Assembly (NCBI RefSeq): GCF_013167455.1 | Contig: NZ_CP038328.1 | Strand: one strand, 5' to 3' | Source of the DNA: Escherichia coli O157:H7 | GTDB taxonomy: Bacteria; Pseudomonadota; Gammaproteobacteria; Enterobacterales; Enterobacteriaceae | Length of the DNA stretch: 64,000 bases | In this document: positions 4,718 to 63,918 of the stretch, in pieces | Numbering within the stretch: the first letter of the stretch is position 1 | How the letters are laid out: every line of letters starts with the position of its first letter | The notes under the pieces: generated by a model | Database searches by the model: none | What the model was told of the DNA's origin: nothing | The model's input: the letters and a program-made list of their open reading frames with translations, nothing else | Translations under genes and position numbers: made by a program

Positions 4718-6960
<2,243 letters not shown>

Positions 6961-6973
6961 TTCCGGTCTCCTG

Positions 6974-7729
6974 TCAGAACTTATAACCACGATGCAGCGC
7001 CACAACCCCTGCCGTCAGATTGTAGTAGTCGACACTTTCGAATCCGGCATCCTGCATCATGGCTTTCAGGGTATCCTGATCGGGATGCATACGGATGGAT
7101 TCTGCCAGATAACGGTAGCTGTCGGCGTCGTTCGCGACCAGTGAGCCAATACGCGGCAGCACATGGAAGGAGTATGCATCATAGGCTTTGCTCAGCGGCT
7201 CGATAATTGGCTTCGAGAACTCAAGCACCAGCAGGCGGCCGCCGGGTTTCAGCACGCGATACATTGAACGCAGTGCTTTATCTTTGTCGGTGACGTTACG
7301 CAGACCAAACGAAATGGTGATGCAATCAAAGGTGTTATCCGGGAACGGCAGCGCCTCAGCGTTCGCCTGAACATACTCAACGTTGCCAATCACACCGATA
7401 TTACGCAGCTTCTCGCGGCCCATTTTGAGCATGGATTCATTGATATCAGCAAGGACCACTTTGCCAGTTTCTCCGACCAGGCGGGAGAATTTCGCTGTCA
7501 GGTCGCCGGTGCCACCAGCCAGATCCAGCACGGTCTGCCCACGGCGTACGCCGCTGCAATCAATCGTGAATCGCTTCCACAAACGATGAATACCAAATGA
7601 CATCAAATCATTCATGACATCGTATTTTGATGCCACGGAATGGAAAACGTGGGCGACCATATCCGCTTTTTGTTCCTTCGCGACGGTCTGAAAACCAAAG
7701 TGCGTCGTTTCTTGTGACTTATCCACCAT
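6974..7729 (-). CDS. ubiE: Ubiquinone/menaquinone C-methyltransferase UbiE
   Basis: 251-aa ORF with SAM-methyltransferase glycine-rich motif ([11 protein letters not shown]); recognised as UbiE. Confidence 0.95.
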
Positions 7730-41430: not shown

Positions 41431-42627
41431 ATGCTAAAAGTGTTATTGCTCTTTGTGTTGCTGATTGCGGGGATCGTGGTTGGCCCGATGATTGCCGGTC
41501 ATCAGGGTTATGTGCTGATCCAGACCGACAACTACAATATCGAAACCAGCGTCACGGGCCTGGCGATCATATTGATTCTGGCGATGGTAGTGCTGTTTGC
41601 CATTGAGTGGCTACTGCGGCGGATCTTCCGCACTGGCGCGCACACCCGTGGGTGGTTTGTCGGGCGTAAGCGTCGCCGTGCACGTAAGCAGACCGAACAG
41701 GCGCTGCTGAAACTGGCGGAAGGCGATTATCAGCAAGTTGAAAAGCTGATGGCGAAAAATGCCGATCACGCTGAACAACCGGTGGTGAACTATCTACTGG
41801 CTGCCGAAGCCGCGCAACAACGTGGTGATGAAGCGCGCGCCAACCAACATCTGGAACGCGCAGCGGAGCTGGCCGGCAATGACACCATTCCGGTAGAAAT
41901 CACCCGTGTACGTCTGCAACTGGCCCGTAATGAAAACCATGCTGCACGCCACGGCGTGGATAAGCTGCTGGAAGTTACGCCACGCCATCCGGAAGTATTA
42001 CGTCTGGCGGAACAGGCGTATATCCGCACAGGTGCATGGAGTTCGCTGCTGGATATTATCCCATCAATGGCGAAAGCCCATGTTGGTGATGAAGAACATC
42101 GTGCAATGCTGGAACAACAGGCATGGATTGGCCTGATGGATCAGGCGCGTGCCGATAACGGTAGCGAAGGTTTGCGTAACTGGTGGAAAAACCAAAGCCG
42201 GAAAACGCGTCATCAGGTAGCGTTGCAGGTGGCAATGGCGGAACATCTTATTGAATGTGACGATCATGATACTGCCCAGCAAATTATCATCGATGGCCTG
42301 AAACGCCAGTACGACGATCGCCTACTGCTGCCGATTCCTCGACTGAAAACAAACAATCCGGAACAGCTGGAAAAAGTGCTGCGCCAGCAAATCAAAAACG
42401 TCGGCGATCGCCCGCTGTTGTGGAGCACACTGGGCCAGTCACTGATGAAGCACGGAGAATGGCAGGAAGCATCGCTCGCCTTCCGCGCAGCGCTGAAACA
42501 ACGTCCGGACGCCTACGATTACGCATGGCTTGCCGACGCGCTGGACAGACTGCACAAGCCGGAAGAAGCTGCAGCGATGCGTCGCGACGGTTTGATGTTA
42601 ACGTTGCAGAACAACCCACCACAGTAG
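41431..42627 (+). CDS. hemY: HemY (TPR-containing inner-membrane protein)
   Basis: 398-aa ORF starting 2 bp after the hemX stop; recognised HemY. Confidence 0.95.
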   Translation: MLKVLLLFVLLIAGIVVGPMIAGHQGYVLIQTDNYNIETSVTGLAIILILAMVVLFAIEWLLRRIFRTGAHTRGWFVGRKRRRARKQTEQALLKLAEGDYQQVEKLMAKNADHAEQPVVNYLLAAEAAQQRGDEARANQHLERAAELAGNDTIPVEITRVRLQLARNENHAARHGVDKLLEVTPRHPEVLRLAEQAYIRTGAWSSLLDIIPSMAKAHVGDEEHRAMLEQQAWIGLMDQARADNGSEGLRNWWKNQSRKTRHQVALQVAMAEHLIECDDHDTAQQIIIDGLKRQYDDRLLLPIPRLKTNNPEQLEKVLRQQIKNVGDRPLLWSTLGQSLMKHGEWQEASLAFRAALKQRPDAYDYAWLADALDRLHKPEEAAAMRRDGLMLTLQNNPPQ

Positions 42628-42674
42628 TTCCTTCTCACCCGGAGGCAAGCACCTCCGGGACCTTCCTGACACAT

Positions 42675-42881
42675 AAAAAAACGCCTGCTCTTATTACGGA
42701 GCAGGCGTTAAAACAGGTCTGTATGACAACAAGTGGGTGCTTCACTCAACGTTGTGTCCATGGTGTCTGATGAGGCATAAGCGACATCTGTCAGTGGACG
42801 ATAAGCACCGTAAACGGCTCTGCGTCATTCCGGAGTTTATGAGGCACTAAGGCGAACATAAGAGATGGAATGAGCATCTAC
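42675..42881 (-). ncRNA. glmZ: GlmZ small regulatory RNA
   Basis: Reverse complement begins GUAGAUGCUCAUUCCAUCUCUUAUGUUCGCCUUAGUGCCUCAUAAACUCCGGAAUGACGCAGAGCC... and ends in a terminator hairpin AACGCCUGCUCCGUAAUAAGAGCAGGCGUUUUUUU, matching GlmZ as I recall it, in its known hemY-aslA intergenic position; the same hairpin on the + strand sits 50 bp after the hemY stop. Confidence 0.8.
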
Positions 42882-43305
42882 TCGTTTATTATGCCACAGA
42901 GAATCGGGAAATAACATCCCTTAACACTTGTTATGAGATAATTCTGTAATCCTCTTTGCTTCCTGAGTAATAACTTCCTGAGTGAATATTTAACCTGAGC
43001 TTGATCCTACACATACTTATTATGAATGATAAAATTCATTCAATTAATAACACATATATTAATTGCCGTTAAAACTAAAAACAGCATCAATAATCAACGC
43101 GATATAATAAACCTGCCTTACATATCAACTGCGCCAGAGGTAGGATTGAAAACGCTCTCCTGATTTTTAAATTCATTTCTTGGATAAATAAATAATTTAT
43201 TTTTATCACTATTATTTATGTAATCATCCTGTCAGGGAGAGGGATCTCAATTATCAATGCTTAATTACGTCATCATTTTGTTGACATGAAACCGGAGCAT
43301 TTTGC

Positions 43306-44961
43306 ATGGAATTTTCGTTTTCACCCAAACTTCTTGTTGTTGCTGTCGCCGCCGCTCTTCCTCTCATGGCCAGCGCAGCAGATACCCCGTCAACTGCCAC
43401 CGCGCGCAAAGGCTTTGCCGGATACGATCACCCAAACCAGTATCTGGTTAAACCGGCGACCACTATTGCCGACAACATGATGCCAGTAATGCAGCATCCG
43501 GCGCAGGATAAAGAACCCCAGCAGAAGCTGGCAGAACTTGAGAAAAAAACCGGTAAGAAACCGAATGTGGTTGTTTTCTTGCTGGACGATGTGGGCTGGA
43601 TGGACGTCGGTTTTAACGGTGGCGGCGTGGCGGTGGGTAACCCTACACCAGATATCGACGCCGTTGCCAGCCAGGGGCTGATTTTAACTTCGGCGTATTC
43701 TCAACCAAGCTCTTCCCCAACCCGCGCCACCATTCTCACCGGACAATACTCCATCCACCACGGCATTCTGATGCCGCCAATGTACGGGCAACCGGGCGGG
43801 CTGCAAGGGTTAACCACGCTGCCGCAGTTGCTGCACGATCAGGGCTACGTCACTCAGGCCATCGGGAAATGGCATATGGGGGAAAACAAAGAGTCGCAGC
43901 CGCAGAACGTTGGCTTTGATGATTTCCGTGGCTTTAACTCGGTGTCTGATATGTACACCGAATGGCGCGACGTTCACGTCAATCCGGAAGTGGCCCTGAG
44001 TCCGGACCGTTCTGAATACATCAAGCAATTACCATTTAGCAAAGATGACGTTCATGCGGTGCGCGGCGGCGAACAACAGGCCATTGCCGACATTACGCCG
44101 AAATATATGGAAGATCTGGATCAACGCTGGATGGAATATGGCGTTAAGTTCCTCGACAAGATGGCGAAGAGTGATAAGCCTTTCTTCCTCTATTACGGCA
44201 CTCGCGGCTGTCACTTCGATAACTACCCGAACGCCAAATATGCGGGTAGCTCTCCGGCACGCACCTCGTATGGCGACTGCATGGTGGAAATGAACGATGT
44301 GTTCGCTAATCTGTATAAAGCACTGGAGAAAAACGGTCAGCTTGATAACACGCTGATTGTCTTTACCTCCGATAACGGACCGGAAGCCGAAGTACCGCCG
44401 CACGGACGCACACCGTTCCGTGGTGCGAAAGGATCTACCTGGGAAGGCGGCGTTCGCGTACCGACTTTCGTTTACTGGAAAGGCATGATCCAACCGCGTA
44501 AATCTGACGGTATTGTTGATCTGGCAGATCTCTTCCCAACAGCACTGGATCTGGCGGGGCATCCTGGTGCGAAAGTGGCGAATTTAGTGCCGAAAACCAC
44601 CTTTATCGATGGTGTGGACCAGACATCTTTCTTCCTGGGAACAAATGGTCAGTCTAACCGTAAGGCCGAGCACTACTTCCTCAACGGTAAACTCGCTGCT
44701 GTGCGTATGGATGAATTCAAGTATCACGTCCTGATTCAGCAACCTTACGCTTATACCCAGAGCGGATATCAGGGTGGATTCACCGGCACAGTAATGCAAA
44801 CAGCCGGATCGTCGGTGTTTAACCTCTACACCGATCCGCAGGAGAGCGACTCTATCGGCGTGCGCCATATTCCGATGGGTGTACCGCTACAGACCGAAAT
44901 GCACGCGTATATGGAGATCCTGAAAAAGTATCCACCACGCGCGCAGATTAAATCTGATTAA
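43306..44961 (+). CDS. aslA: Arylsulfatase-like protein AslA (Ser-type sulfatase)
   Basis: 551-aa ORF with signal peptide and sulfatase signature [12 protein letters not shown] (Ser at the formylglycine position). Confidence 0.95.
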
Positions 44962-46510: not shown

Positions 46511-46587
46511 TGGTCGGCGAGAGAGGATTCGAACCTCCGACCCACTGGTCCCAAACCAGTTGCGCTACCAAGCTGCGCTACTCGCCG
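46511..46587 (-). tRNA. proM: tRNA-Pro (anticodon UGG)
   Basis: Reverse complement = CGGCGAGTAGCGCAGCTTGGTAGCGCAACTGGTTTGGGACCAGTGGGTCGGAGGTTCGAATCCTCTCTCGCCGACCA; full cloverleaf, encoded CCA. Confidence 0.95.
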
Positions 46588-46629
46588 AAATACTGCTTTT
46601 TGAATTTTTAGTTCAATTCTTTAAAGTCG

Positions 46630-46716
46630 TGGTGCGAGGGGGGGGACTTGAACCCCCACGTCCGTAAGGACACTAACACCTGAAGCTAGCGCGTCTACCA
46701 ATTCCGCCACCTTCGC
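46630..46716 (-). tRNA. leuT: tRNA-Leu (anticodon CAG), copy 1
   Basis: Reverse complement = GCGAAGGTGGCGGAATTGGTAGACGCGCTAGCTTCAGGTGTTAGTGTCCTTACGGACGTGGGGGTTCAAGTCCCCCCCCTCGCACCA. Confidence 0.95.
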
Positions 46717-46735
46717 ATTGTCACAACTTCTAATA

Positions 46736-46812
46736 ATGGGGTGGCTAATGGGATTCGAACCTCCGACCCACTGGTCCCAAACCAGTTGCGCTACCAAGCT
46801 GCGCTACTCGCC
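46736..46812 (-). pseudogene. Hybrid pseudo-tRNA: tRNA-Pro 5' portion fused to tRNA-His 3' portion
   Basis: Minus-strand sequence is identical to proM from the 5' end through the 5' T-stem (CGGCGAG...GGGUCGGAGG) and then continues as the hisR T-loop, 3' T-stem and 3' acceptor strand (UUCGAAUCCCAUUAGCCACCCCA); the acceptor stem (CGGCGAG vs UAGCCACC) and T-stem (GGAGG vs CCCAU) cannot pair. Confidence 0.85.
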
Positions 46813-46854
46813 GAAATACTGCTTTTTGAATTTTTAGTTCAATTCTTTAAAGTC

Positions 46855-46941
46855 GTGGTGCGAGGGGGGGGACTTGAACCCCCACGTCCGTAAGGACACT
46901 AACACCTGAAGCTAGCGCGTCTACCAATTCCGCCACCTTCG
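46855..46941 (-). tRNA. leuT: tRNA-Leu (anticodon CAG), copy 2
   Basis: Identical to copy 1; part of the tandem duplication. Confidence 0.95.
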
Positions 46942-46962
46942 CATTGTCACAACTTCTAATAA

Positions 46963-47039
46963 TGGGGTGGCTAATGGGATTCGAACCCACGACAACTGGA
47001 ATCACAATCCAGGGCTCTACCAACTGAGCTATAGCCACC
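46963..47039 (-). tRNA. hisR: tRNA-His (anticodon GUG)
   Basis: Reverse complement = GGTGGCTATAGCTCAGTTGGTAGAGCCCTGGATTGTGATTCCAGTTGTCGTGGGTTCGAATCCCATTAGCCACCCCA. Confidence 0.95.
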
Positions 47040-47096
47040 ACTACAAATCTTGTTACGCGGTATTACTACCACCGCAGCTCAAGCGCCGGGACTAAA

Positions 47097-47173
<77 letters not shown>

Positions 47174-63457: not shown

Positions 63458-63787
63458 TTACGCCAGGTTAGCGTCGAGGAACTCTTTCAACTGACCTTTA
63501 GACAGTGCGCCCACTTTGGTTGCCGCCACTTCACCGTTTTTGAACAGCAGCAGAGTCGGGATACCACGGATGCCATATTTCGGCGCAGTGCCAGGGTTTT
63601 GATCGATGTTCAGTTTTGCAACGGTCAGTTTGCCCTGATATTCGTCAGCGATTTCATCCAGAATCGGGGCGATCATTTTGCACGGACCGCACCACTCTGC
63701 CCAGAAATCGACGAGGATCGCCCCGTCCGCTTTGAGTACATCCGTGTCAAAACTGTCGTCAGTCAGGTGAATAATTTTATCGCTCAT
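63458..63787 (-). CDS. trxA: Thioredoxin 1
   Basis: Recognised TrxA ([41 protein letters not shown]..., 109 aa, CGPC active site); start at internal Met of the 144-aa ORF. Confidence 0.97.
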
Positions 63788-63918
63788 ATATAACTCCACA
63801 GGAATAAGCCTGGCGTGTTGGTTTCGTTGTTGGTGTAACATTAACCAACTAAAGGTTGACTTTATTTCACCGGATACGCTTTCGTAAAGCAATAGTAAGC
63901 TGATATTCTACCACACTA

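Follow-up and report, generated by a model that had tools for sequence, protein, structure and literature searches.

The closest described relative of the RNA examined here is GlmZ of Escherichia coli K-12, also known as SraJ or RyiA (Rfam family RF00083). Members of this family combine two large imperfect stem-loops, a single-stranded linker and a Rho-independent terminator, and glmZ is linked convergently to the hemCDXY operon (PMC3045617). In E. coli, the gene is transcribed from a single constitutive σ70 promoter that GlrR does not bind; deletions and point mutations in K-12 established that the interval from -40 to +32 is sufficient, that the -35 and -10 elements are required, and that nothing upstream of -40 is needed (PMC3045617). 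The glmZ genes of Salmonella and Yersinia encode the same sRNA in the same convergent linkage to hemCDXY and are transcribed from promoters that depend on σ54 and GlrR. RapZ binds to the central stem-loop of GlmZ, and a processed form of about 151 nt has been described together with the mechanism that generates it (PMC4152352).

Two further systems provide points of reference. GlmY (RF00128, clan CL00011) shares a homologous fold, with two stem-loops and a terminator, and is bound by RapZ through its central stem-loop; it lacks the glmS pairing site and serves as a RapZ decoy, whereas the RNA described below carries that site. The second is the bidirectional intrinsic terminator of convergent genes, in which the stem must, on a given strand, be preceded by an A-run and followed by a T-run. 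The locus studied here likewise places a GC-rich hairpin between two convergent units, but it departs from such terminators in that both flanks of the hairpin are U-rich in the GlmZ sense, two hairpins are used, and the mapped 3' ends lie apart.

We examined this locus in a window of 64,000 nucleotides from the E. coli O157:H7 chromosome (contig NZ_CP038328.1). The features are collected in Table 1.

Table 1. Features around glmZ in the O157:H7 window (window positions; strand relative to the sequence as presented)
Feature	Position	Strand	Basis or remark
hemY, last gene of hemCDXY, convergent with glmZ	41431..42627	+	ORF list and RefSeq annotation of the identical O157 chromosome
hemY 3' hairpin H1 (CCCGGAGG-caagca-CCTCCGGG, 42638-42659) with 7-nt tail ACCUUCC	42638..42666	+	Fold and K-12 Term-seq
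GlmZ sRNA gene, 207-nt primary transcript	42675..42881	-	Rfam RF00083 and K-12 identity; +1 = 42881, +207 = 42675
GlmZ intrinsic terminator, one-directional	42675..42709	-	11-bp stem with 8-nt loop (42680-42709), then U7 (42675-42681)
glmS-pairing site, nt 149-170, in single-stranded linker	42712..42733	-	RNAduplex against the K-12 glmS leader
RapZ/RNase E processing site; ends +151, +152, +154	42728..42731	-	K-12 Term-seq, mapped to the window
GlmZ central stem-loop 2, nt 73-146	42736..42809	-	Rfam alignment; putative RapZ-binding element common to GlmY
GlmZ stem-loop 1, nt 1-65	42817..42881	-	Rfam alignment structure line; single-sequence fold agrees
glmZ σ70 promoter, -40..-1	42882..42921	-	Identical to K-12 and to primer BG184
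aslA-glmZ intergenic region, AT-rich	42882..43305		GC 0.285-0.33, no credible ORF
aslA	43306..44961	+	RefSeq annotation of the identical chromosome

The glmZ gene and its surroundings in E. coli O157:H7

A scan of the whole window against Rfam at gathering thresholds returned a match to RF00083 (GlmZ_SraJ) that scores 218.4 bits (gathering score 60; E = 3.4e-56), spanning model positions 1-214 of 214 and thus the full length of the family. The preliminary description had placed GlmZ here from the sequence alone and had named a covariance-model search as the check; the ends of the match agree exactly with the coordinates it gave. The RNA scores best as GlmZ, an overlapping lower-scoring match of the same clan having been dropped by cmscan.

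The alignment with K-12 MG1655 is free of gaps (window position = 42881 - (K-12 position - 3986432)) and contains 12 differences in 1101 bp, none of them in 42675-43167, so that all 207 of 207 nt of GlmZ and the 40 bp of its promoter are identical to K-12. Two differences, at 42660 and 42670, lie just downstream of GlmZ, and several more fall in the AT-rich region. Published primers for the K-12 gene (PMC2377431), BG184 for glmZ -39..-1 and BG185 for +207..+248, were found at the expected places, their sole mismatches being the differences at 42660 and 42670 inside the +207..+248 site; these matches therefore fix +1 and +207 as given in Table 1. Many E. coli O157:H7 chromosomes match the surrounding 1-kb stretch at 100% identity, and of 5426 complete E. 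coli genomes 5425 contain it; both the ORFs and the RefSeq annotation place hemCDXY in the convergent orientation typical of GlmZ. Judged by its sequence, the feature is the already known glmZ gene of E. coli O157:H7. It agrees with K-12 in its position between hemY and aslA, its three stem-loops, its pairing and processing sites and its U7 terminator; only flanking SNPs and the annotation differ.

The annotation itself varies between records. In the RefSeq record of the identical O157:H7 chromosome, glmZ is not annotated, and the K-12 RefSeq record gives a glmZ of 172 nt (3986432-3986603) that ends just before the terminator, the length in the literature and in Rfam being 207 nt.

The Rfam alignment, the fold and the terminator scan agree on the architecture of the RNA: stem-loop 1, stem-loop 2, a single-stranded linker, and a terminator at nt 173-202 followed by the U-tract. 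What discriminates GlmZ from GlmY is a linker that can pair with the glmS leader ahead of the Shine-Dalgarno sequence, and such a linker is present: an RNAduplex comparison restricted to the linker and the K-12 glmS leader gave -19.2 kcal/mol for pairing between nt 149-170 and glmS -41..-21, a value reached by 25 of 1000 shuffles. An earlier comparison of whole-length GlmZ with the whole glmU-glmS spacer gave an end-to-end duplex that was worse than shuffles and was set aside in favor of the restricted test. The family match, the K-12 identity and the glmS pairing thus bear out the description of this RNA as an established feature and a known regulator, an activator, of glmS.

The K-12 Term-seq data also list GlmZ 3' ends at 3986582, 3986583 and 3986585 (+), which correspond to the three processed ends in Table 1 and lie in sequence identical to that of the window. 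The promoter, the 3' ends and the mechanism involving RapZ, RNase E and Hfq are carried over from K-12 experiments and would apply to O157 by analogy. According to the K-12 literature, transcription from the constitutive σ70 promoter would yield an RNA of 207 nt in which two large stem-loops are followed by a single-stranded linker and a terminator of its own. With Hfq, the linker would pair with the glmS leader and open a hairpin that masks the ribosome-binding site, so that more GlmS is made. With abundant glucosamine-6-phosphate, RapZ would deliver GlmZ to RNase E for cleavage at about +151-154, with loss of the pairing site, and GlmY would oppose this cleavage by sequestering RapZ.

In the promoter, a -10 hexamer CATAAT at 42888-42893 and a TG at 42895-42896, which together form an extended -10 element, can be read from the sequence. 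A generic σ70 scan did not detect this genuine glmZ promoter because its -35 element is weak; the assignment therefore rests on identity to the promoter dissected in K-12. The glmZ promoter of the window is thus of the E. coli type, unlike the σ54/GlrR type of Salmonella and Yersinia.

Beyond the promoter, the preliminary description had noted an AT-rich, ORF-free stretch of about 420 bp upstream of aslA, and this description is accurate: the region measures 424 bp, its core has the low GC content given in Table 1, and it contains only mechanical ORFs, the longest of 45 and 40 aa, with nothing annotated there in the K-12 RefSeq record. An Rfam scan of 42500-43400 at a low threshold found GlmZ and, besides it, only a snoRNA match (E = 0.19) that we judge spurious. 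In K-12, promoter deletions showed that the AT-rich region beyond the first 40 bp is dispensable for glmZ expression (PMC3045617).

The scans also recovered other RNAs elsewhere in the window. The argX-hisR-leuT-proM tRNA operon (46511-47173, minus strand) contains a perfect 226-bp tandem duplication (46525-46976) and carries six tRNA-like genes, against four in the K-12 operon. The middle "tRNA-Pro" (46739-46813) is chimeric, joining the 5' 63 nt of proM to the 3' end of hisR (CCCATTAGCCACCC), and the junction lies in T-arm sequence common to both (GGTTCGAATCC); its Rfam score is low, at 34.6 bits, and it is unannotated in the identical O157 RefSeq record. A match to RF02757, "Erse small RNA" (6355-6606, minus strand, 316 bits), lies wholly inside the 3' end of a 216-aa ORF (6355-7005, minus strand) and ends at its stop codon; it may correspond to the reported EsrE sRNA inside ubiJ/yigP. 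RF02773, the TrxA 5' UTR thermometer, matches at 63758-63857 (minus strand) with 78.8 bits against a threshold of 58.

Polarity of the GlmZ terminator

The preliminary description had proposed that the GlmZ hairpin, lying about 50 bp after the hemY stop and flanked by A/T runs on both sides, is shared with the end of hemCDXY and acts bidirectionally. The distance is accurate, the GlmZ 3' end lying 47 nt and the start of the stem 52 nt after the hemY stop. The flanking runs are also present, but they lack two-way symmetry: on the plus strand both consist of A (A7 at 42675-42681 and A4 at 42710-42713), so both are U in the GlmZ RNA. Read as GlmZ, the order is UUUU, hairpin and U7, a canonical intrinsic terminator in which the first two U of the U7 pair into the stem. 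Read in the heme direction, the order is A7, hairpin and AAAAC, and the RNA therefore lacks a U-tract, with no U in the 8 nt that follow the stem (AAAACAGG). A consensus terminator scan of 42400-43400 accordingly reported a single terminator-like site, on the minus strand.

Transcript data from K-12 show how this terminator performs in its own direction. In Supplementary file 2 of Adams et al. 2021 (PMC7815308), which lists DirectRNA-seq reads upstream and downstream of a position with and without bicyclomycin (BCM), the GlmZ-strand entry at K-12 3986668 (window 42645) falls from 1924 to 30 reads across the GlmZ terminator in untreated cells and from 1745 to 76 with BCM, with a Rho score of 2.8. 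The drop in untreated cells indicates that the terminator is efficient for GlmZ.

Comparison across relatives gave the same polarity. One DNA-pattern scan of GTDB species representatives yielded 120 loci, with hemY convergent with glmZ in 106 of them; three further convergent loci were left out after the automatic hairpin finder failed, and the other 11 were mostly truncated. Since the finder misfired on about 9 of 109 convergent loci (three dropped and about six kept with an implausible hairpin), the counts that follow are approximate. Across the 106 enterobacterial loci, the tail of the hairpin contains on average 6.4 U of 8 in the GlmZ sense. In the heme sense, the tail of the same hairpin has no U in 51 loci, one in 33, two in 13, three in 5 and four in 4; a tail with at least 5 U in 8 nt occurs in 0 of 106, and a two-way design is thus not conserved. 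The GlmZ terminator is built for the GlmZ direction only, which corrects the reading of a shared terminator.

The 3' end of the hemCDXY transcript

Between the hemY stop and GlmZ lies a separate hairpin, H1, which the preliminary description did not mention. It folds at -16.9 kcal/mol (z = -4.1), and its motif occurs only once in the window, so it is not a repeated element there. In the K-12 Term-seq data of Adams et al. 2021 (PMC7815308, Supplementary file 1), the "primary" 3' end of hemY is listed at 3986647(-), which corresponds to window position 42666, in three of three conditions (LB OD 0.4, LB OD 2.0 and M63). The sequence printed in that file covers -50..+10 around each end, a reading for which the CCA end of proM served as control. 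The hemY end falls 7 nt after H1, with an 8-nt gap before the 3' end of GlmZ. These 3'-end data come from K-12 and not from O157, and the SNPs at 42660 and 42670 lie in the H1 tail and in the spacer, the tail reading GCCUUCC in K-12 and ACCUUCC in O157.

No heme-strand 3' end past the GlmZ hairpin, antisense to glmZ, is listed in K-12 Term-seq in any of the three conditions. The name "glmZ" appears six times in that file, for three internal ends and for three antisense labels on hemY rows. As this curated list gives processed GlmZ ends and not the full-length 3' end, the 8-nt gap depends on the Rfam match and on the published length of 207 nt. Mapping of 3' ends on both strands had been suggested as a check of the shared hairpin, and the published K-12 data go against it: the hemY end lies before the GlmZ hairpin and after a hairpin of its own, with no overlap between 42666 and 42675. 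The dominant convergent transcripts therefore neither overlap nor use one hairpin.

Relatives point to the same arrangement. In 74 of the 77 spacers that could be examined, hemY is followed by a separate hairpin with a folding energy of -8 kcal/mol or better; 22 of these 74 hairpins are followed by at least 5 U, as in canonical terminators, and 34 by at least 4 U. Examples are the hemY terminators of Enterobacter cloacae (AAGGAGGCC-AGAC-GGCCTCCTT followed by TTTTT) and E. whittamii (ATATCGCCTC-GTTCA-GAGGCGATAT followed by TTTTTTT). The H1 stem is kept within Escherichia, in E. albertii through a compensatory change from G-C to A-U, and the tail in that species (GCUUUUCU) is richer in U. Taken together, the terminators of relatives and the retained stem suggest that H1 is a local, somewhat degenerate, hemY-specific terminator.

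The spacing between the two genes varies among relatives. At eleven loci from Enterobacter, Leclercia, Phytobacter and relatives, glmZ and hemY are kept apart by an insert of about 1.45 kb, against a spacing of 47 nt in E. coli, and E. whittamii has an insert of about 265 bp together with its canonical hemY terminator. At the other extreme, 0-19 nt separate the hemY stop from the GlmZ U-tract in about 7 of the 106 species, and in one of them the stop overlaps the U-tract. With no room for a separate hemY hairpin, these species must have heme transcripts that end within glmZ or past it, and they too lack a heme-sense U-tract at the GlmZ hairpin.

On the heme strand, the Rho data of Supplementary file 2 contain an entry at K-12 3986596(-), window position 42717 (+), with 175 reads upstream and 52 downstream in untreated cells and 154 and 473 with BCM (Rho score 10.3, p = 4e-44). 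Rho thus represses transcription past the hairpins on this strand in K-12, and the position of the region indicates that some heme-strand transcription crosses the GlmZ hairpin when Rho is inhibited. The downstream reads with BCM are threefold more numerous than the upstream hemY reads, so a large part of the Rho-sensitive signal starts downstream; this suggests that Rho-silenced transcription begins in the AT-rich region upstream of aslA, in aslA, or antisense to glmZ. For the same reason, we did not take the score of 10.3 as proof of Rho-dependent termination of hemY, for which it is ambiguous.

We consider it very likely that glmZ has a one-directional terminator and that hemCDXY ends separately at H1, with Rho as a back-up. 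The hemCDXY transcript would stop at its own GC-rich hairpin, leaving two facing 3' ends with an 8-nt gap between them and no hairpin in common. Mechanistically, H1 is most likely an intrinsic terminator of low strength whose U-tract is degenerate (3 of 8 nt are U, poor for intrinsic termination), and Rho would clear the read-through. The likeliest alternative supposes that H1 does not terminate at all: polymerases would read through both hairpins, Rho would stop them further on, either antisense to glmZ or within the AT-rich region, and 3'-to-5' exonucleases would trim the transcript back to H1, which protects the end. This is a possible but rather unlikely reading. It draws on the poor U-tract of H1, on the strong heme-strand Rho region at 42717, and on the exonuclease processing of Rho-generated 3' ends that Adams et al. 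describe (PMC7815308). However, the end lies exactly 7 nt past the stem, which is the usual distance for intrinsic termination; the excess of downstream over hemY reads with BCM means that much of the signal is not read-through from hemY; the more stable GlmZ-antisense hairpin downstream should halt trimming first, yet no end is listed there; and related species have canonical U-rich terminators at the same position.

A terminator shared between the two units, with the GlmZ hairpin ending hemCDXY as well, is not supported and appears extremely improbable, since it fails on the polarity of the base runs, on the published 3'-end positions and on the comparative test. The hairpin is about equally stable in both senses (-21.6 kcal/mol in the plus and -19.8 kcal/mol, z = -5.5, in the minus sense), it lies close behind the hemY stop, and it is the sole hairpin after hemY in the roughly seven close-spaced species. 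These points are outweighed by a plus-sense tail devoid of U, by the absence of U-rich heme-sense tails among the 106 loci, and by the K-12 hemY end upstream of the hairpin in all three conditions, data that already contradict this reading. Moreover, the bases upstream of the stem (CCUGUUUUAAC in GlmZ) are not free to become an A-tract because they lie in the glmS pairing site or next to it. Termination driven by collisions, of the Ju/Wang type, in which heavy glmZ transcription would block heme polymerases head-on and set both 3' ends, is also quite improbable here. The model has been described for convergent E. coli pairs, the genes do converge, and glmZ is by far the more strongly transcribed (1924 against 175 upstream reads); that class, however, is defined by 3' ends overlapping over one hairpin and by independence from Rho, while at this locus the ends lie apart, the heme strand carries a strong Rho signal, and the GlmZ terminator is canonical and efficient, so that collisions are unneeded. 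Separate termination at H1 therefore remains our preferred reading.

Implications for the GlmZ system

A regulatory link between the heme pathway and GlmZ can also be conceived, in which heme transcripts that escape H1 and are normally suppressed by Rho would run antisense through the GlmZ terminator and the glmS-pairing site, coupling the pathway to GlmZ and GlmS by cis-antisense RNA or transcriptional interference. We regard this as highly speculative and very improbable; the Rho signal may come largely from transcripts starting in the AT-rich region. If true, such a link would help explain why the convergence of glmZ and hemCDXY has been kept across the Enterobacterales while the other flank varies.

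All that this analysis adds is a correction, namely that the terminator of GlmZ acts in one direction and that hemY is followed by a 3' hairpin of its own. It is useful for annotation, given that glmZ is missing from the O157 RefSeq record and stops at 172 nt in that of K-12, and it leaves the understanding of the system unchanged. GlmZ is established as controlling the production of GlmS, an enzyme whose activity commits cells to the construction of their envelope, and in enterohaemorrhagic E. coli both GlmY and GlmZ have been linked to the regulation of virulence genes (PMC3903284).
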